The notes under the pieces are model-generated. The model saw only the letters and a list, made by a program, of their open reading frames with translations. It did not search any database and was not told the DNA's origin. DNA of 25,093 bases from a virus (taxonomy: Duplodnaviria; Heunggongvirae; Uroviricota; Caudoviricetes), in IMG/VR virus record IMGVR_UViG_2541047854_000006. One strand, written 5' to 3'. The first letter of the stretch is position 1. Each line of letters starts with the position of its first letter. Shown here piece after piece: positions 20 through 22,473 of this stretch. Both the position numbers and the translations under genes were made by a program.

Positions 20-1300
20 TTAATTTTTCATTGCTTCGTTATGGGGCATGGTTGGGGCAAACTCGCTTAACTGTGTATTTAACAAAGCTACCTGTGCATT
101 ATTGTTTTCAGACATCCATTTTCCGTATACCTGAAATACCATTTGCGCATCTGCATGGCCCATCTGGTTTGCTATAAATGCCGGGTTAGCACCAGCTGTC
201 AGCGACCAGCAGGCATAAGTATGTCTCGACTGATATGATTTTCGATGGCGGAGTCCGGCACGTTTTATCGCTGCGTCCCACATCTGCCTTATTGAGTCAA
301 CGGTAAAATGGTCACCATAATTTTTTACTCTCGCTGACACTTCAGGTTGAAAAACAAAGGTGCATTTTTGTTTTTCTGTTCTGCCATACTCTCTGAGGTG
401 AACATCAATGATATGCTCTTTGCTCAGTCTCGTTAATGTCATCTGACTCCGGAGAGCGTCGATTGCTGGCTTAATAAGATGAATGACCCGATTGGTTCCC
501 GCCTGTGTTTTTGGTACCGTGAAACGGTCTTTTGCTAAATTTCTCCTGATCATCATTGTTCCATTTTTCAGATCTATGTCCTCCCATCCAAGTGCACACA
601 GCTCACCAGGGCGAACGCCAGTATAAACAGAAACACACCATAAATTTTTTGCTTGCTGATTTCTGCACGCATCGATAAGACGGATAAATTCTTCCCGCGA
701 AAGAGGATCCGGAATGGTTCTTGATTCCTTTAATGGCGAGATCCCCTTAAACGGATTATCTGCCAGGTAACCGTTATCAACACCAAACTGGAACACGGCG
801 TTAAGATTTGTCATGTAATTAATTACAGTTACAGCCGATCTCCCTGGTTGTGTAACAATATAGTTACTTTTGGGGATCTGGTATCCAGTCAGTAACTCTT
901 TACGAACCTCCAGTAATTTTTCTTTATTAATCGATGAGGCAAGATTTTTTTCACCGATTATGCTCAGGATATTTTTGATGACGGCACGGTATGTGTTGAG
1001 TGATGTTTTGGCGACTTCAGTTTCTTTCAGTGCCAGAAATTTTTCAGCCAGTTCTTTTATGGTTAAATCTTGTCGGGCCTCACCAAATTTTTCCAGATTG
1101 CGTGAGGAGGGAAACTGTTTTGCATAGTCGAAAACACCAGTTTTTATTGCGTAACAAACAGAGGAGCGTAGTTCACCTGCAACGCGCCTGTTTTTTGCTG
1201 TGTCAGGAACCCCCAGATTTTCCCTGACTCTTACGTCTTTATAAACAAACCAGATACGTAATTTCCCTCCATGGTTTTCCACGCCTGTCGGATATTTCAT
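20..1300 (-). CDS. Prophage tyrosine integrase (lambda/Rac IntR-like, N-terminal arm-binding domain)
   Basis: 431-aa ORF 20..1315; N-terminus KYPTGVENHGGKLRIWF resembles arm-binding N-domain of lambdoid integrases; C-terminal catalytic region has R...HxxR...Y residues (RHRKSYQSRHTYACW, VFQVYGKW). Start set at second Met (MKYPTG) because it has a GAGAGAAG RBS-like sequence upstream; first Met at 1315 lacks one. Confidence 0.85.
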   Translation of the reverse strand: MKYPTGVENHGGKLRIWFVYKDVRVRENLGVPDTAKNRRVAGELRSSVCYAIKTGVFDYAKQFPSSRNLEKFGEARQDLTIKELAEKFLALKETEVAKTSLNTYRAVIKNILSIIGEKNLASSINKEKLLEVRKELLTGYQIPKSNYIVTQPGRSAVTVINYMTNLNAVFQFGVDNGYLADNPFKGISPLKESRTIPDPLSREEFIRLIDACRNQQAKNLWCVSVYTGVRPGELCALGWEDIDLKNGTMMIRRNLAKDRFTVPKTQAGTNRVIHLIKPAIDALRSQMTLTRLSKEHIIDVHLREYGRTEKQKCTFVFQPEVSARVKNYGDHFTVDSIRQMWDAAIKRAGLRHRKSYQSRHTYACWSLTAGANPAFIANQMGHADAQMVFQVYGKWMSENNNAQVALLNTQLSEFAPTMPHNEAMKN

Positions 1301-1334
1301 TTCAACTTCTCTCATTAGTTAGTGTGGCTTTTAG

Positions 1335-1586
1335 TCAAGTAAGATGACGTCTTGGTCTCGCTGATGCCTGGCGCTCAATCCAGCGATCAATTTCTTCCAG
1401 GTTGTAAAAGCATGGACTGTTATCCCATGGCATACCGTCATGAGCGACATGCTTATATTCCCTTCCTTCCATAAACGATTTTTCCCGGGCCTTTTTTAAC
1501 GTACCTTTTTTTATTCCTTTCAGCGCAATTAACTGCTCTTCGGATACCCATTTGCCGGGAGAGACAATCATGATTACTTCGCTCAT
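1335..1586 (-). CDS. Putative excisionase-like small protein (Xis position, directly upstream of int)
   Basis: 83-aa ORF immediately upstream of and co-oriented with the integrase; size and position typical for a lambdoid excisionase. Function inferred from context only. Confidence 0.45.
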   Translation of the reverse strand: MSEVIMIVSPGKWVSEEQLIALKGIKKGTLKKAREKSFMEGREYKHVAHDGMPWDNSPCFYNLEEIDRWIERQASARPRRHLT

Positions 1587-1658
1587 CGATTTCTTTATCT
1601 CTTACATCAGACGAGCGCCGGTTGCAGAATACCAGTCACAACCGGCGACAGTTGAACA

Positions 1659-3788
1659 TTAAGAATCAGCCTGACTCGGGATCAGTTTTTGCCAGATAAC
1701 TGAAACGTATTTTGCCTGGTAACGGGCGTCATCAAGTGCATTATGGCGCTCACCTTCGAATGGAATAGCCGTTCTGGCATCGAAGTCTATGGCTTTCCCC
1801 AGCTCAACGATTGTGCGTACATCGCGATCGTTGTAGTAACGCCACGGGCAGGGGATCCCCTGCCGTTCGTATGAACGGCGCAAAATCGTGTTGTCGAAGT
1901 TGGCTCCATTTCCCCAAACCTGAACAAAAAATTCACCGGAGTTTTCGTCGATAAATTCTCGCAATTGTAACAGTGCATCATCTAACGGGATTTCATCGGT
2001 CATAATGGCAGATTGCGCTTCGCGTGATTGCTTAAGCCACCATTTAATGGTGTCCCGATCAATGACTCCGCCAGCAGTTTCCAGATCGATAGTCTTACTA
2101 AATTCCGGTCCCATATCTCCGGTTTGCGGATCGAAAAATATTGCACCTATTGAGATGATCGGGGCATCAGGATTTTTTCCCATGGTTTTAAGGTCGATCA
2201 TTAGATGGTCACACGTCCTGCTGGTGGATGTGATTTCGTGATGACCGTTCACCTTAATTGGGTGATCTGCCGTCTCGCCAGTTTCATTATCGCTATTGTG
2301 ATGCTGATTGCCGCCAGTGTTCTCCTTGTGTGGATGTTCAGCGCCTTCCATTTCCTCCGGATCATCTTCCTGAACTTCAACCTGATACTCTTCATCGAAT
2401 GTTTCTTGGTATGTTGCGTCGCCCATCACCGCGCCACAATCAGGGCAGTTGCCGCCGCCGGTCTGACCGCAGGCGGTGCAGACTTTTTCCACTTCCTGTT
2501 GCGCTACTGGTTCAGGCTGTTTCGTTTCTGGCTCGTTTTGTAACGCATTTGGACTGTTTTGTTCCGCTTTTTGGTAGTTCCGTTCCGATTCATGCTGGTT
2601 CTGGTTCACAGAATCGCGGGTCTGGAGCCCCTTAACCCATTTCGGATCATTCGGGTCACTAATCCCTTCAACAAATTCACCACGTGATGCAGCAAGCAAC
2701 TTATCGGCGTCAGGCTGGCTGATATTGGCTGCCTGCATAATTTTGTTTACTTCGCCAGCGGTAACTTTTATCGGCTCTGGTTGTTCTGAATCTTCAGCGG
2801 TATCTACATTTTGCGGTAAGCCCGTGTATGTGCCATTTTTTCGGGCAAAATATTCTTCTTTTGTGATTTCAGTGGCGCCAGCAGCCAGTGCCTTATCCAG
2901 ACCAGAGAGTTTGTTTGCGCGACCGTATTTTTCTCCGTCCTTATCTGCGAAGAGGAAATAGAACGGCCCCTCACGCTCTACAGATGGTTCAGCTTCCGGC
3001 GCGGTTTCATTTTTTGGGATATCAGATACCTCAGTTTCCACTGCATCAGTTTGTGTTTCTGATGACTGGAGAACATCAACAGTGCCCAGGTCTGTTTCTT
3101 CATTCTCAAACACGCCCTTTGTCGTCAGGTATTCGCAGATATATTTGTTCAGTGCTACGGGATCTTTGTGAATGTCGATCGGACGCTCACGGACAAGGCC
3201 AAAAATAGTTTGGCGGTCGTAGCGAAGGGCATCAGGCTGTTTGCGCATTGATGCCGAGATACGCTTCCAGTCTTCGCGGTCGTTGTCGATAACTTCTTTT
3301 TTTGCCCAGCGATGGATGCTGCCGTCAATGTTTCCGGCATCCACATCACTAGGCCAGAGAGCGTAGGCCAGTTCGTCATCCAGTGTTTTCCATGTCTGCT
3401 TGTATTCGCGATGAATGGCAGCAATGACCGGGCTGATTTTTCCTGTTGAATTTTCAGTGTACTGTTGATTGGCTCTGGCGCGGGCGAGATCAACAACAGA
3501 CGTGTATTTTCCGGTTTCCTTGCGTTCACCTTCGCGACGTTTTTTCCAGATGCGCATCTCTGCCTGAATTTCGGGCCATTTAGCACCAGGAATACATTTA
3601 TGCTTAACCCACCCAATGGCGTGCAACTTAAGCTCCGGATACATGGCGTTAACTTCTGGCATTTTCATCAACGCTTCAACGATATGTCCGTCGAATGTTG
3701 CCATGTCTTCCTGCAACAATTCCTGTGCGCTAATAACCATAGCGGAACTGTTTGCTGAGAACACCGTGCGGTGTGTTGATGCAAACAA
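1659..3788 (-). CDS. Exonuclease-like protein (709 aa): unknown N-terminal region, acidic low-complexity linker, C4 zinc ribbon, C-terminal DEDD-type 3'-5' exonuclease-like domain
   Basis: Long uninterrupted ORF; central acidic stretch (EEYQVEVQEDDPEEMEGAEH); CTACGQTGGGNCPDCG zinc-ribbon motif; C-terminal region with DLET (Exo I-like), and HNALDDARY (Exo III H-x4-D-like) motifs. Exact start uncertain (several Met near N-terminus). Confidence 0.7.
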   Translation of the reverse strand: MFASTHRTVFSANSSAMVISAQELLQEDMATFDGHIVEALMKMPEVNAMYPELKLHAIGWVKHKCIPGAKWPEIQAEMRIWKKRREGERKETGKYTSVVDLARARANQQYTENSTGKISPVIAAIHREYKQTWKTLDDELAYALWPSDVDAGNIDGSIHRWAKKEVIDNDREDWKRISASMRKQPDALRYDRQTIFGLVRERPIDIHKDPVALNKYICEYLTTKGVFENEETDLGTVDVLQSSETQTDAVETEVSDIPKNETAPEAEPSVEREGPFYFLFADKDGEKYGRANKLSGLDKALAAGATEITKEEYFARKNGTYTGLPQNVDTAEDSEQPEPIKVTAGEVNKIMQAANISQPDADKLLAASRGEFVEGISDPNDPKWVKGLQTRDSVNQNQHESERNYQKAEQNSPNALQNEPETKQPEPVAQQEVEKVCTACGQTGGGNCPDCGAVMGDATYQETFDEEYQVEVQEDDPEEMEGAEHPHKENTGGNQHHNSDNETGETADHPIKVNGHHEITSTSRTCDHLMIDLKTMGKNPDAPIISIGAIFFDPQTGDMGPEFSKTIDLETAGGVIDRDTIKWWLKQSREAQSAIMTDEIPLDDALLQLREFIDENSGEFFVQVWGNGANFDNTILRRSYERQGIPCPWRYYNDRDVRTIVELGKAIDFDARTAIPFEGERHNALDDARYQAKYVSVIWQKLIPSQADS

Positions 3789-4598: not shown

Positions 4599-4921
4599 AC
4601 AGGCTCGTGAGGCTCTGGATGCCTGGATATGTCGACCAGGAATGACACAGGAGCAGTGGCGATGTATACAACTCCGGCTACGGGTTATTCCCCTCTGAAC
4701 AGGCGCGTAAGGACTGGCAAAACGCCCGCAAAAAACTCTCGAGGGCAAAGGTGAAGAAACCTGCTGTGGTTGATCCGGACCTTATCTGGTCATCACCTGA
4801 CGGAGAAATACGTCGCTACGACAGTCGCCTAAACATAATCTGTCGCGAGTGCCGGAAGAGCGAAGTTATGCAGCGCATACTGGCTTTCTATCAGGGTAAT
4901 TTTCAGGACGTGGCGCAGTGA
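4582..4921 (+). pseudogene. Early-right ORF apparently split by a +1 frameshift (or two short overlapping ORFs)
   Basis: Frame 1 ATG 4582 gives 38 codons ending at TGA 4696..4698; frame 2 is open from 4646 to TGA 4919..4921 (ends in GTGA overlap with next gene). Both frames contain a similar EQAR..DW motif. Alternative: second ORF starts at GTG 4751 with GAGGG RBS. Confidence 0.3.
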
Positions 4922-10477: not shown

Positions 10478-10753
10478 GAGGGATGGTCCCTTAAGGGTAA
10501 AGGGATTGTTCTGGATGAAAAAAGAACCCGGTTTCATGGCGTACCGGTATATAAGATTTGTGGGCGTTGTAATGGAAACCGGTTTAGTCGTTTACCGACC
10601 ACGCTGGCACGACGTCATGTCCAGAAGCTGGTACCAGACCTGACCGATTATCAGTGGTATAAGGGGTATGCGGACGTCATTGGTAAACTGGTAACAAAGT
10701 GCTGGCAGGAAGAAGCATACGCGGAAGCGCAATTGAGGAAGGTGACGAGATAA
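10478..10753 (+). pseudogene. Q antiterminator remnant (C-terminal about 90 codons, no start codon)
   Basis: Frame open from 10478 with no in-frame ATG; translation ...KICGRCNGNRFSRLPTTLARRHVQKLVPDLTDYQWYKGYADVIGKLVTKCWQEEAYAEAQLRKVTR* aligns with the C-terminus of lambda Q (CGRCKGVGYSRMP...NLTQPTW...CHKEESIADNILNAVTR). Confidence 0.6.
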
Positions 10754-16875: not shown

Positions 16876-17421
16876 ATGGAAGTCAACAAAAAGCAGCTGG
16901 CTGACATTTTCGGTGCGAGTATCCGTACCATTCAGAACTGGCAGGAACAGGGAATGCCCGTTCTGCGAGGCGGTGGCAAGGGTAATGAGGTGCTTTATGA
17001 CTCTGCCGCCGTTATAAGATGGTATGCCGAAAGGGATGCTGAAATTGAGAACGAAAAGCTGCGCCGGGAAGTTGAAGAACTGCGGCAGGCCAGCGAGACA
17101 GATCTCCAGCCAGGGACTATTGAGTACGAACGCCATCGACTTACGCGTGCGCAGGCCGACGCACAGGAGCTGAAAAATGCCAGAGACTCCGCTGAAGTGG
17201 TGGAAACCGCATTCTGTACTTTCGTGCTGTCGCGGATCGCAGGTGAAATTGCCAGTATTCTCGACGGGATCCCCCTGTCGGTGCAGCGGCGTTTTCCGGA
17301 ACTGGAAAACCGACATGTTGATTTCCTGAAACGGGATATCATCAAAGCCATGAACAAAGCAGCCGCGCTGGATGAACTGATACCGGGGTTGCTGAGTGAA
17401 TATATCGAACAGTCAGGTTAA
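16876..17421 (+). CDS. Terminase small subunit, lambda Nu1 homolog
   Basis: 181-aa protein MEVNKKQLADIFGASIRTIQNWQEQGMPVLRGGGKGNEVLYDSAAV... essentially lambda Nu1. Confidence 0.92.
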   Translation: MEVNKKQLADIFGASIRTIQNWQEQGMPVLRGGGKGNEVLYDSAAVIRWYAERDAEIENEKLRREVEELRQASETDLQPGTIEYERHRLTRAQADAQELKNARDSAEVVETAFCTFVLSRIAGEIASILDGIPLSVQRRFPELENRHVDFLKRDIIKAMNKAAALDELIPGLLSEYIEQSG

Positions 17422-18406
17422 CAGGCTGCGGCATTTTGTCCGCGCCGGGCTTCGCTCACTGTTCAGGCCGGAGCCACAGACCGCCGTTGAATGGGCGGAT
17501 GCTAATTACTATCTCCCGAAAGAATCCGCATACCAGGAAGGGCGCTGGGAAACACTGCCCTTTCAGCGGGCCATCATGAATGCGATGGGCAGCGACTACA
17601 TCCGTGAGGTGAATGTGGTGAAGTCTGCCCGTGTCGGTTATTCCAAAATGCTGCTGGGTGTTTATGCCTACTTTATAGAGCATAAGCAGCGCAACACCCT
17701 TATCTGGTTGCCGACGGATGGTGATGCCGAGAACTTTATGAAAACCCACGTTGAGCCGACCATCCGCGATATTCCGTCGCTGCTGGCGCTGGCTCCGTGG
17801 TATGGCAAAAAGCACCGGGATAACACGCTCACTATGAAGCGTTTTTCCAATGGTCGTGGCTTCTGGTGCCTGGGCGGTAAAGCGGCAAAAAACTACCGTG
17901 AAAAGTCGGTGGATGTGGCGGGTTATGATGAACTTGCTGCCTTTGATGAGGATATTGAACAGGAAGGCTCTCCGACGTTCCTTGGCGACAAACGTATTGA
18001 AGGCTCGGTCTGGCCAAAGTCCATCCGTGGCTCCACGCCCAAAGTGAGAGGCACCTGCCAGATTGAGCGTGCAGCCAGTGAATCCCTGCATTTTATGCGT
18101 TTTCATGTTGCCTGCCCGCACTGCGGGGAGGAGCAGTATCTTAAATTTGGCGACAAAGAGACGCCGTTTGGCCTCAAATGGACGCCGGATGACCCCTCCA
18201 GCGTGTTTTATCTCTGCGAGCATAATGCCTGCGTCATCCGCCAGCAGGAGCTGGACTTTACTGATGCCCGTTATATCTGCGAAAAGACCGGGATCTGGAC
18301 CCGTGATGGCATTCTCTGGTTTTCGTCAACCGCGTTGCGTCATCCGCGATATCGCAGTCTGCGTCACAGGTTGCCCGTGAGACAAAGGTACGCCGGAAAC
18401 TGGTAA
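17396..18406 (+). pseudogene. Terminase large subunit (lambda A) N-terminal fragment, truncated by internal deletion
   Basis: Matches lambda gpA from MNISNSQVNRLRHF... through ...TGIWTRDGILWFSS (about 308 aa), then diverges into 25 unrelated codons and stops; full gpA is about 641 aa. Confidence 0.85.
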
Positions 18407-18819
18407 AGGAAAGGGCCAGGCTGAAAAGGGCCACGGTCAAAAATCCGCAGGCCAGAATCAGGGTTAACCGGGGGGATTTGCCCGTAATCAAGCTGGGTAA
18501 TGCGCGGGTTGTCCTGTCCCGCCGCAGGCGTCGTAAAAAGGGGCAGCGTTCATCCCTGAAAGGTGGCGGCAGCGTGCTTGTGGTGGGAAACCGTCGTATT
18601 CCCGGCGCGTTTATTCAGCAACTGAAAAATGGCCGGTGGCATGTCATGCAGCGTGTGGCCGGGAAAAACCGTTACCCCATTGATGTGGTGAAAATCCCGA
18701 TGGCGGTGCCGCTGACCACGGCGTTTAAACAGAATATTGAGCGGATACGGCGTGAGCGTCTTCCGAAAGAGCTGGGCTATGCGCTGCAGCATCAACTGAG
18801 AATGGTAATAAAGCGATGA
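18307..18819 (+). pseudogene. Tail completion protein (lambda Z) C-terminal fragment lacking a start
   Basis: Frame open from 18307; C-terminal 113-aa ORF (18478..18819) ends in ATGA overlap with U exactly as Z/U in lambda; upstream in-frame codons lack an ATG. Deletion junction with A lies near 18320. Confidence 0.6.
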
Positions 18820-19211
18820 AACATACTGAACTCCGTGCAGCCGTACTGGATGCACTGGAGAAGCATGACACCGGGGCGACGCTTTTTGATGGTCGCCCCG
18901 CTGTTTTTGATGAGGAAGATTTTCCGGCAGTTGCCGTTTATCTCACCGGCGCTGAATACACGGGCGAAGAGCTGGACAGCGATACCTGGCAGGCGGAGCT
19001 GCATATTGAAGTTTTCCTGCCTGCTCAGGTGCCGGATTCAGAGCTGGATTCGTGGATGGAGTCCCGGATTTATCCGGTGATGAGCGATATCCCGGCACTG
19101 TCAGATTTGATCACCAGTATGGTGGCCAGTGGCTATGACTACCGGCGCGACGATGATGCGGGCCTGTGGAGTTCAGCCGATCTGACTTATGTCATTACCT
19201 ATGAAATGTGA
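18816..19211 (+). CDS. Tail terminator protein, lambda U homolog
   Basis: 131-aa protein [67 protein letters not shown]... matches lambda gpU. Confidence 0.9.
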
Positions 19212-19218
19212 GGACGAT

Positions 19219-21210
19219 ATGCCAACACCAAATCCTCTGGCACCGGTGAAAGGGGCCGGGACCACACTGTGGGTTTATAACGGGAGCGGCGACCCTTATG
19301 CAAACCCGCTTTCAGACAATGACTGGTCGCGTCTGGCAAAGGTTAAAGACCTGACGCCCGGCGAACTGACCGCTGAGTCCTATGACGACAGTTATCTCGA
19401 TGATGAAGATGCGGACTGGACCGCGACCGGACAGGGGCAGAAATCTGCCGGAGATACCAGCTTCACGCTGGCGTGGATGCCCGGAGAGCAGGGGCAGCAG
19501 GCGCTGCTGGCGTGGTTTAATGAAGGTGATACCCGTGCCTATAAAATCCGCTTCCCGAACGGCACGGTCGATGTGTTCCGTGGCTGGGTCAGCAGTATCG
19601 GTAAGGCGGTGACGGCGAAGGAAGTGATTACCCGCACGGTGAAGGTCACCAATGTGGGACGTCCGTCGATGGCAGAAGATCGCAGCGCGACCAACAGCAC
19701 GTCTGAAACGCTTGCCGCGACACCAAAGGCAGTAAAAGCAGCCAATGACAATGCTGAGAAACGTCTGCAGAAAGATCAGAACGGTGCGGATATCCCTGGC
19801 AAAGATACCTTTACGAAAAATATTGGTGCCTGCCGTGCCTTCGGTGGGTCAGTAAGCACAACAACAGGAAACTGGACGACTGCACAGTTTATCGAGTGGC
19901 TGGATTCTCAGGGAGCATTTAACCATCCATACTGGATGTGCAAGGGTTCCTGGTCTTATGGCAATAATAAAATCATTACTGATACTGACTGCGGTAATAT
20001 TCATCTCGCCGGAGCTGTCATTGAAGTAATGGGGATAAAGTCAGCGATGACGATCCGCATTACCACACCGACCACCTCCACTGGTGGTGGAACAACTAAC
20101 GCCCAGTTTACCTATATTAATCACGGAACAGATTATTCACCTGGCTGGCGAAGGGACTATAACTCCAGAAATAAGCCAACGGCATCAGAGATCGGGGCGT
20201 TACCGTCAGGTGGAACAGCAGTATCATCAGTTAATCTGGCTTCAAAAGGTCGGGTAACCGCGCTGACAGACAATACGCAGGGGGCAGCAGGTCTTGAGTT
20301 ATACGAGGTGTATAACAACGGATATCCAACAGCGTATGGAAATATCATTCACCTGAAAGGGATGACAGCCGTTGGCGAAGGTGAGTTACTCATCGGCTGG
20401 AGTGGTACAAGCGGTGCTCATGCTCCGGCATTTATTCGTTCACGACGGGATACGACCGACGCAAACTGGTCGCCGTGGGCGCAGCTTTACACCTCGGCTC
20501 ATCCTCCTGCAGAGTTTTATCCAGTCGGTGCACCAATCCCGTGGCCATCAGATACCGTTCCGTCTGGTTATGCCCTGATGCAGGGGCAGACTTTTGACAA
20601 ATCTGCATACCCGAAACTTGCAGTTGCTTATCCGTCAGGCGTGATCCCTGATATGCGTGGCTGGACGATTAATGGCAAGCCCGCCAGTGGTCGGGCCGTA
20701 TTATCTCAGGAACAGGACGGCATTAAATCGCACACCCACAGCGCCAGCGCATCCAGTACGGATTTGGGGACGAAAACCACATCGTCGTTTGATTACGGAA
20801 CCAAATCCACGAATAACACCGGGGCGCATACCCATAGTATTAGCGGGACCGCAAATAGTGCCGGTGCGCACCAACACAAGAGTTCCGGTGCATTTGGTGG
20901 CACGAACACGAGCATTTTCCCTAATGGTTATACCGCGATTTCAAATCTAAGCGCGGGGATTATGAGCACAACAAGCGGTAGTGGCCAGACTCGTAATGCA
21001 GGGAAGACATCATCAGATGGTGCTCATACCCACTCGCTGTCCGGCACTGCTGCAAGCGCAGGCGCACATGCACATACTGTCGGTATTGGTGCTCATACGC
21101 ACTCCGTTGCGATTGGTTCACATGGACACACCATCACCGTTAACGCTGCTGGTAACGCGGAAAACACCGTCAAAAACATCGCATTTAACTATATTGTGAG
21201 GCTTGCATAA
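19219..21210 (+). CDS. Chimeric ORF: major tail protein (lambda V) N-terminal about 166 aa fused in frame to a side tail fiber C-terminal region
   Basis: N-terminus [20 protein letters not shown]...[11 protein letters not shown] matches lambda gpV; from [26 protein letters not shown] onward it matches the conserved shaft and C-terminal receptor-binding region of P2 H / lambda Stf-type fibres (PIPWPSD..., SHTHSASAS..., repeated GAHxH motifs, ...[11 protein letters not shown]). Start placed at the Met equivalent to the lambda V start. Confidence 0.8.
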
Positions 21211-21785
21211 TGGCATTCAGAATGAGTGAACAACCACGGACCATAAAAATTTATAATCTGCTGGCCGGAACTAATGAATTTATTGGTGAAGGTGATGCAT
21301 ATATTCCGCCTCATACAGGTCTGCCAGCAAACAGTACCGATATTGCACCGCCAGATATTCCGGCTGGCTTCGTGGCTGTTTTCAACAGTGATGAGTCATC
21401 GTGGCATCTCGTTGAAGATCATCGGGGTAAAACGGTTTATGACGTGGCTTCCGGCGACGCGTTATTTATTTCTGAACTCGGTCCGTTACCGGAAAATGTT
21501 ACCTGGTTATCGCCGGAAGGGGAGTTTCAGAAGTGGAACGGCACAGCCTGGGTGAAGGATACGGAAGCAGAAAAACTGTTCCGGATCCGGGAGGCGGAAG
21601 AAACAAAAAACAACCTGATGCAGGTAGCCAGTGAGCATATTGCGCCGCTTCAGGATGCTGCAGATCTGGAAATTGCAACGGAGGAAGAAATCTCGTTGCT
21701 GGAAGCATGGAAAAAGTATCGGGTATTGCTGAACCGTGTTGATACGTCAACTGCACAGGATATTGAATGGCCAGCACTGCCGTAG
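21210..21785 (+). CDS. Tail fiber assembly protein (Tfa family)
   Basis: 191-aa ORF starting in TAATG overlap with the fibre gene; [51 protein letters not shown]... typical of lambda Tfa / P2 G chaperones. Confidence 0.85.
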
Positions 21786-21882
21786 GGTAAAACATATAAA
21801 TTCTATAATTAGATGTATCTTTCCATTTACGGCAAGGAAGGGGGCTTGGAAGACGTAAAGCATCTCACACCGAGATTATTTT

Positions 21883-22473
21883 TTATATGTCAGGTGTCTG
21901 AAGTTTTGCTTTGGCTCTTAAAATGGTTTGCCGCGAGGTTTTGAATTCCCGGGCAATGGCACTTATACTTACACCTGACTTAATTCGTTCGAATACCGCC
22001 TGTTTCTGTTCTTCATTTAACACAGGTAGTCGACCAAAACGTTTCCCTGCGCCGCGGGCTCTTACTATCCCGGAATGAGTGCGTTCAAGTAAAAGGTCTC
22101 GTTCAAATTCAGCGACTGCTGAAATTACTTGCATCATCATTTTTCCTGTTGGACTGGTCAGGTCAATGCCACCCAATGCTAAGCAATGCACTCTGATACC
22201 TGTTTCGGTCAGTTGTTCCACTGTTTTCCTGATATCCATTGCATTACAACCAAGGCGATCCAGTTTTGTCACAATCAATTGATCACCACATTTCAGGCGA
22301 GCAAGCAACCGGTTAAAACCAGGACGCTCACTGGTTGCTGCTGAGCCGCTAATGTGTTCTTCGATTATTTGCTGAGGTTTGATTTTAAAACCTGCACTTT
22401 CGATTTCCCGGCGTTGATTTTCGGTGGTCTGATCCAGCGTTGATATCCGACAGTAAGCAAAAATTCGAGACAT
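21883..22473 (-). CDS. Serine recombinase, Pin/Gin/Hin-type DNA invertase
   Basis: 196-aa protein [29 protein letters not shown]... with resolvase-type N-terminal catalytic Ser region and C-terminal HTH ([19 protein letters not shown]); convergent with the fibre genes. Confidence 0.88.

Follow-up and report, generated by a model that had tools for sequence, protein, structure and literature searches.

A lambda tail tube gene joined in frame to a side-tail-fibre gene in a Qin cryptic prophage, a probable accident of prophage decay

How did a gene that begins as a tail tube gene and ends as a tail fibre gene come to stand in a cryptic prophage, and is its product of any use? The question is raised by an open reading frame (ORF) at positions 19219-21210, plus strand, of the window analyzed here, that is, the whole 25,093-nucleotide stretch of IMG/VR record IMGVR_UViG_2541047854_000006, which is a copy of the Escherichia coli cryptic prophage Qin inserted in ydfJ. 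An earlier note, made from the letters of this DNA, had described the ORF as an in-frame chimera of the phage lambda major tail protein gpV (gene V) and a tail fibre, formed by deletion, and this is borne out by Pfam, the PDB and the alignment with intact prophages. The chimera, V::Stf, is an in-frame relic of prophage decay, like stfQ of E. coli K-12, and not a new protein family. With a probability of about 85%, the ORF is a fortuitous in-frame, accidental product of this decay without a selected protein function. The absence of such a function is what we infer; the anatomy, the parental sequences, the microhomology at the join, the rarity of the chimera and its loss in a sister lineage are read directly from the genomes.

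Anatomy and origin of the fusion

The ORF starts with ATG, has its stop codon at 21208-21210 and encodes 663 amino acids, one fewer than the 664 first counted; an alternative in-frame ATG upstream, at 19189, would give a product of 673. The RefSeq entry for the 663-residue protein is WP_001301021.1, annotated "phage tail tube protein". The parts of the chimera are the following.

19211-19215: GAGGA, the native V ribosome-binding site, ahead of the chimera start
19219-19686, plus strand: gpV part, codons 1-156, the complete N-terminal tube-forming domain (PF16461, PDB, DNA identity to V of E. coli 88-3493)
19682-19686: V::stf deletion junction, a 5-bp microhomology GCAGC covering V codon Ser156 and stf codon Ser517 (three-way alignment with the parental sites of 88-3493 and E. 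coli W)
19687-21210, plus strand: Stf part, with one Phage_fiber_2 repeat, a Mu S'-like segment, Collar and a T4 gp37-like His-rich tip (Pfam, PDB, PHROG 295)

The first 156 residues are genuine gpV and not a native part of a fibre family: 151/156 are identical to lambda gpV (97%; PDB 6p3e, E = 1e-99), with five substitutions. The similarity ends at AEDRS|ATNSTSE, residue 156 of the chimera, and not near residue 166 as had been estimated. The Pfam family Phage_TTP_12 (PF16461, lambda tail tube) matches residues 18-152 over its whole profile (positions 1-135 of 135, E = 1e-70), and the PDB entries 6p3e, 2k4q and 7t2e all align to residues 1-156, the latter two being constructs 156 residues long. 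In the fibre half, Pfam finds Phage_fiber_2 (PF03406) at 156-185 and Collar (PF07484) at 437-484, and PDB matches are to the phage Mu fibre S (5yvq, residues 145-208), an S/S' construct (8ju3, 178-334) and the receptor-binding tip of T4 gp37 (2xgf, 433-663). PHROGs assigns residues 1-175 to the major tail protein and residues 150-663 to a tail fibre (PHROG 295). Both halves are covered by solved structures, to which modelling the trimeric fibre as a monomer would add no information.

Like lambda gpV (PDB 6p3e, 2k4q; PF16461), the chimera follows U and has the native ribosome-binding site; unlike it, the C-terminal Ig-like (Big_2) domain (lambda residues ~160-246 of 246 amino acids) is replaced by 507 fibre residues, at the point where the parental V of 88-3493 goes on with TVTAATGMTV. 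The Stf half comprises residues 518-1024 of its parent, the last 507, of which 506 are identical to WP_000279080.1, the exception being K to N at chimera residue 485. DNA identity to 88-3493 is 96.9% in the gpV half (against V) and 99.9% in the Stf half (against stf). The repeat, the Collar domain, the gp37-like tip and the following tfaQ are shared with the intact Qin-like Stf (WP_000279080.1 in 88-3493; WP_000279140.1 in W) and with lambda Stf, whereas residues 1-517 of the intact protein are missing, that is, the N-terminal tail-attachment domain PF08400, which the full-length relatives carry and for which the chimera has no Pfam match, the Ala/Ser-rich shaft and the first fibre repeat.

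Both parental sites are found in E. coli 88-3493 and E. coli W, which have an apparently complete Qin-like prophage (49 kb) at the same locus, with the gene order Nu1, A, W, B, C, D, E, FI, FII, Z, U, V, G, T, H, M, L, K, I, J, lom, stf (1024 amino acids), tfaQ, pinQ. The window is collinear with these prophages save for clean gaps, with no inserted DNA. At the gap considered here the V sequence ends at 19686 and the stf sequence begins at 19682, an overlap of 5 bp, and the missing DNA amounts to 11,865 bp compared with 88-3493 and 11,782 bp compared with W. The loss of G through J, which had been read from the window before, is thereby confirmed in full (G, T, H, M, L, K, I and J); lom, the Ig-like domain of V and residues 1-517 of Stf went with them. 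The switch had also been placed right at a conserved fibre motif; the junction indeed lies immediately before the 17-letter motif, partly because homology between stf alleles begins at that base (19682), as in the phages mEp332 and Turner.

We propose that the ancestral prophage in ydfJ was lambdoid, Qin-like and complete, as in W and 88-3493, and that it lost 11.8 kb in one illegitimate recombination event, between a GCAGC pentamer at V codon 156 and another at stf codon 517. The reading frame would have been kept because both pentamers happen to share codon phase.

This deletion is one of five that reduced the 49-kb prophage, as seen in W, to the 25-kb remnant. They lie at 3740/3741, 4654-4656, 10492-10497, 18328-18332 and 19682-19686, have sizes of ~2.0, 1.6, 2.2, 6.4 and 11.8 kb, respectively, and show a microhomology of 2-6 bp each. 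The third took rem, ydfU and the N-terminus of Q, and the fourth is an out-of-frame fusion of A (at ~codon 312) with the middle of Z, in which the A frame ends at 18406. One in-frame join beside the out-of-frame A'-'Z join fits the chance expectation of one in three. The flanking genes concerned are listed below.

10493-10753, plus strand: remnant of the late-gene antiterminator gene Q (ydfT/quuQ), N-terminus deleted at the 10492-10497 junction (annotation of an identical genome, alignment with E. coli W)
17396-18332, plus strand: terminase large-subunit gene A, truncated (~codons 1-312), C-terminus missing (PF05876; homology to the intact prophage ends at 18332)
18328-18819, plus strand: gene Z remnant, with the A'-'Z junction at 18328-18332 (PF06763, profile positions 79-190 only)
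18816-19211, plus strand: U, tail terminator gene, intact, directly upstream of the chimera (PF06141, E = 8e-62, full length)
21210-21785, plus strand: tfaQ, intact tail-fibre assembly chaperone gene, 191 amino acids, its start overlapping the chimera stop codon (Caudo_TAP PF02413, E = 4e-43)
21883-22473, minus strand: pinQ, serine DNA invertase gene, convergent with tfaQ (PF00239, PF02796)

Upstream of the chimera U is present, whereas none of the genes G through J occurs in the window. The intact chaperone gene that the earlier note saw after the chimera is tfaQ, whose product (RefSeq WP_000885611.1) is the same protein in the intact prophages. The Qin gene set is further represented by dicA/dicC, relBE, hokD, cspB/F/I, gnsB, ydfO, nohA and ydfK, in addition to tfaQ and pinQ (annotation of E. 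coli O15_8X and comparison with K-12), and the 11-bp att core repeat TTATGGATTTC stands at both ends of Qin. The Z'-U-V' segment (18333-19681) is only 96.8-96.9% identical to 88-3493 and W, both flanks being 99.8-99.9% identical; its 42 differences cluster at the V start (19217-19242). Judging by this divergence, the ancestor evidently carried a different allele of the Z'-U-V' module. A repeat scan beside pinQ (21786-22473 region) found no invertible segment, pix-like inverted repeats or alternative fibre cassette left; an orphan pinQ fits the published report of PinQ acting in trans on the e14 P segment (PMC12529663).

Distribution of the junction and related fusions

A probe of 401 nt centred on the junction is covered in three of 5,426 complete E. 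coli genomes (O15_8X, FORC_082 and B-JRPT-4119), all of which match the window over its full 25 kb with at least 99.9% identity, which points to one event in one lineage. Further, the junction is present in 1/26 IMG/VR loci and 1/22 metagenome contigs that have the adjacent stf sequence, the latter contig coming from the gut. The exact chimera protein is recorded on 109 contigs, including E. coli 101-1, together with one single-residue variant. Among 50,697 phage genomes none covers at least 80% of the protein in one place, and in a large protein search all matches listed are fibre proteins with a query coverage of 50-80% (mostly 77%) and no tube domain.

These data also settle whether the N-terminal 156 residues might be native to the fibre family, or the join an artefact of assembly or sequencing, a reading to which we give practically no weight and in favour of which nothing was found. 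It is refuted by the identity to gpV at 151 of 156 positions and the location directly after U, where V belongs, by the contiguity of both parental flanks in intact prophages, and by the fact that the junction is the same in three independent complete genomes, in an IMG/VR contig and in a contig from a gut metagenome. No frameshift was seen at the junction in the independent assemblies.

A sister of this lineage has already lost the chimera. E. coli NCCP12480 has the A'-'Z junction in common with the window and is 99.98% identical to it in the Z-U region, and it bears an extra 1.2-kb deletion, running from window 19034 in U to ~20256 in stf, with which the V::stf junction was lost (locus L003, 5626-5636). 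The deletion shows continuing decay in a sister lineage. The chimera marks one lineage, arose once and is already lost in a relative.

A close counterpart is StfQ of E. coli K-12 (b1547), an in-frame deletion chimera at the same locus, in the same stf allele and formed by the same type of event. K-12 stfQ (locus L006, 4886-5848, minus strand) consists of the GTG start of terminase gene A and two codons (VNI) joined to Stf at TALTDN..., at a site called HS3 below. It differs in resulting from an independent deletion (window 17404 to 20255-20257), which left 317 Stf residues and removed Z, U and V altogether. The nohA frame crosses the K-12 stfQ join out of frame.

Other in-frame chimeras of the Stf C-terminus begin with terminase A (P0091, DLP12-like locus), with Lom (P0052), with a J fragment (P0044, Qin locus) or with HokD, the first 16 residues of which are fused in frame to Stf (P0048). 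Like V::Stf, all four combine an arbitrary upstream ORF with the same Stf C-terminal region through a flush microhomology join; in the A, Lom and J chimeras the join lies 57-60 nt further upstream, at GGCTA^ACGGG. Stf fragments may also be made chimeric in a different way. StfE2 of prophage e14 (Kirigo et al. 2025, PMC12529663) is likewise a chimeric side-tail-fibre fragment in a cryptic prophage beside tfa and pin, and the only such fragment with a published functional claim (PMC12529663), but it is formed by a reversible Pin inversion between pix sites that joins two fibre genes, whereas V::Stf results from an irreversible deletion with 5-bp microhomology. No pix-like site of the TTCTCCCAAACC-NN-GGTTTGGGAGAA type was found at or near the V::Stf junction, and no inverted repeat pair flanks stf-tfaQ, in scans that recovered the e14 pix sites as a positive control.

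The chimera itself is of little weight: it is a worked example of cryptic prophages losing structural genes via short-homology deletions, one in three of which leaves a long plausible ORF that annotation pipelines then name as a real gene. K-12 stfQ being the same kind of accident bears on how stfQ-based results are interpreted.

Expression and possible roles of the product

The earlier note had left a choice between an accidental deletion product and a retained receptor-binding module. The former is favoured by the five deletions, the out-of-frame A'-'Z join, the count of 3/5,426 and the sister loss, and no positive support was obtained for the latter. The tube domain would build no tail because the tape measure, initiator and tip genes are gone; in contrast to lambda V, the chimera has no G, T, H or tip genes around it, which leaves no tube initiation. 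The fibre part could not mount on a tail because the N-terminal attachment domain (PF08400) is absent.

Several facts weigh against a purely accidental origin. The ORF is intact, still has the ribosome-binding site native to V and stands before an intact chaperone gene. What remains of gpV is exactly one whole structural domain, and the fibre begins at a domain-like repeat boundary, so that the break is neater than a random one need be. On its 109 contigs the exact protein is accompanied by only one single-residue variant, and the divergence of the chimera is too small for a selection test in either direction. Finally, a chimeric Stf fragment of another cryptic prophage is claimed to block phage adsorption when produced (PMC12529663).

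Expression is predicted to be weak at most, since the resident Q is truncated and the upstream promoter signal is not above background: promoter-like sites upstream of the chimera are no more frequent than in shuffled sequence. In addition, several terminator-like hairpins, as well as opposite-strand genes, lie between Q' and the chimera ORF.

The receptor-binding tip and the chaperone gene are both intact, and the chimera could be an exapted receptor-binding module, in which a TfaQ-chaperoned trimer of the Stf C-terminus occupies or masks an outer-membrane receptor and cuts the adsorption of phages that depend on it, gpV being a harmless passenger that gives the translation signals. In line with this proposal, deletions in Qin, Rac-like and DLP12-like prophages repeatedly spare the stf C-terminus and tfa (and pin where present), and overproduction of a chimeric StfE2 from e14 is reported to make T2 adsorb less well (Kirigo et al. 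2025, PMC12529663). We nevertheless regard it as improbable. The protein has no evident secretion or surface-display signal and would be a cytoplasmic fragment that has no obvious way of reaching the outer side of the membrane; it is confined to one rare lineage and deleted in the sister strain; and stf chimeras at the DNA level are mostly out of frame, so that retention of the 3' end needs no translated product. The StfE2 precedent comes from overexpression and docking, and PADLOC-DB profiles gave zero matches for the chimera, TfaQ, PinQ and U.

A still less probable role, and one to which we attach very little credence, is that of a dominant-negative poison of foreign tails: the Q protein of a related lambdoid phage, on its infection or induction, would read through the Qin late operon, gpV(1-156) would enter the tail tube of that phage, and the trimeric fibre would block or deform it. 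Residues 1-156 do form a complete tube-forming domain with 97% identity to lambda gpV, which is known to assemble without its C-terminal Ig domain. The DNA downstream of the Q remnant is also collinear with the intact prophages. The proposal is inferential throughout, however, and meets the same rarity and secondary loss as the masking of a receptor; the hairpins and opposite-strand genes between Q' and the ORF also weigh against it, and there is no evidence of any Q acting on the operon.

If the chimera is an accident of decay, the use that remains is plausibly passive, with stf-tfa DNA serving as a donor of receptor-binding sequence for infecting lambdoid phages. Lambda recombines with the Qin stf/tfa region at a frequency of ~2e-6 per phage (PMC3945230).

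Recurrent deletion endpoints in stf

The main lead from this analysis is that the endpoints of deletions in this stf family, at Qin-, Rac- and DLP12-type loci alike, are far from random and cluster at a few TA-centred sites. Three sites lie just left of 19682, in DNA deleted from the window. The A (at 524), Lom and J joins fall within the same 4 nt of stf, GGCTA^ACGGG (Stf Asn494; ~3310 in locus L004), where an IMG/VR contig also has antisense bet joined, which makes four left partners at this site. The HokD join is at AGCTA^AGCAGC (L004, ~3254), 2-8 nt from the V join, and another Lom join is at GACTA^ACAGC (L004, ~3373). The region of the V join, within 8 nt of a recurrent endpoint, may thus be prone to breakage. 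The V join itself uses GCAGC, not TA, and as a single event it is not assignable to a hot spot. Among the shared bases TA or TAA occurs in two of the five joins of the window; the TA-containing hot-spot sequence is GGGTAACC.

The most frequent endpoint is intact in the Stf part of the chimera.

20254-20257: HS3, GGGTA^ACCGCG (GGTCGGGTA^ACCGCGCTG; L004, ~2675-2678), right-hand endpoint of independent deletions

HS3 ends both the K-12 stfQ and the NCCP12480 deletions, the left endpoints of which are 1.6 kb apart. At least ten left partners are joined to it: terminase A at codon 3 (K-12), U at 73 (NCCP12480), A at 82, E at 63, L at 184, B at 358, I at 136, the gene of a ClpP-type head protease, a ParB-like gene of a Rac-type prophage and a gene of the Rac locus. 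Most left sites have the form [C/A]GG[T/A]TA^, which matches the lost CGGGTA imperfectly; at the mismatch the product has the base of the left partner.

Endpoints were sampled in 58 IMG/VR loci and 60 listed genomes. The IMG/VR scan used the 30 nt right of HS3, which catches any deletion ending further left and is therefore unbiased. Nine of its 58 loci are chimeric exactly at HS3, in seven different kinds. The 2.1 kb of stf that precede the scanned sequence contain four other endpoints (an internal stf deletion 20 nt off, bet, Lom at GACTA^ACAGC, and V). The complete genomes added at least one further left partner of HS3 (Rac locus) and showed the ClpP-protease join again, while one event ends 33 nt to the left. 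The right half alone is present in 468 of the 1,275 genomes with the HS3 region, most of them K-12 derivatives.

A sequence-specific process of breakage or strand transfer could account for this clustering. It would strip lambdoid prophages of their morphogenesis genes and spare the tip, tfa and pin; V::Stf, whose join lies 4-8 nt to the right of the HokD site, would be one output of the process, and the spared module, translated here from the gpV start, is what would be kept. We hold this explanation to be possible but doubtful. A specific mechanism, if there is one, would go some way to account for the stf'-tfa-pin stub in which cryptic prophages of E. coli so regularly end, and would offer a tractable system for the study of illegitimate recombination hot spots.

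A number of other causes were considered and rejected. Protein-level selection for in-frame fusions at HS3 is ruled out, since none of the seven kinds of chimera from the DNA scan is in frame with the left gene. For Pin/Gin crossover sites, a scan with AAACC-NN-GGTTT (up to two mismatches) was empty at the endpoint sites, e14 pix is unlike them, and a quasi-site reading is incompatible with the inferred crossover position. Protection of the right end by RecBCD and Chi finds zero Chi sites in the needed orientation within the window, and hairpins or cruciforms at the sites are not indicated by DNA folding (z-scores of -0.5 to +0.7). The Qin att core TTATGGATTTC, considered as a secondary-site partner, is unrelated to the endpoint sites. 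A natural mosaic boundary does not coincide with HS3, the homology to mEp332 and Turner breaking at window positions 19682, 19796 and 20518 instead. Escape from CRISPR self-targeting was dismissed by reasoning from the junctions, the products usually rebuilding the sequence beside the retained side, so that the target is not lost. Nor does an IS element end abut any junction examined, the IS3 copy being 53 nt right of HS3. In the searchable literature no account of a stf deletion hot spot was found, and nothing on the protein accessions.

This IS3 is inserted in the otherwise intact stf of seven genomes (E. coli 6409 and six others; locus L011, 6630-7888), where the prophage retains J and lom. 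Two sites outside stf resemble or repeat the pattern above: on its right-hand side the A'-'Z deletion ends at a sequence (parental CATTA^ACCGCGTTGC; window 18328-18340) that has TAACCGCG in common with HS3, and a site at A codon 82/83 (GTCGGTTA^T) is the left endpoint in two different deletions, one to HS3 (L072) and one to K codon 38 (L105). Four loci (L075, L088, L100 and L102) are natural Stf variants with one Phage_fiber_2 repeat instead of two, a form that fits homologous recombination of one repeat with the other. Finally, two records labelled E. coli DH5alpha (H136 and H137) have the full 49-kb W-like Qin prophage, unlike K-12, and their strain label looks doubtful.

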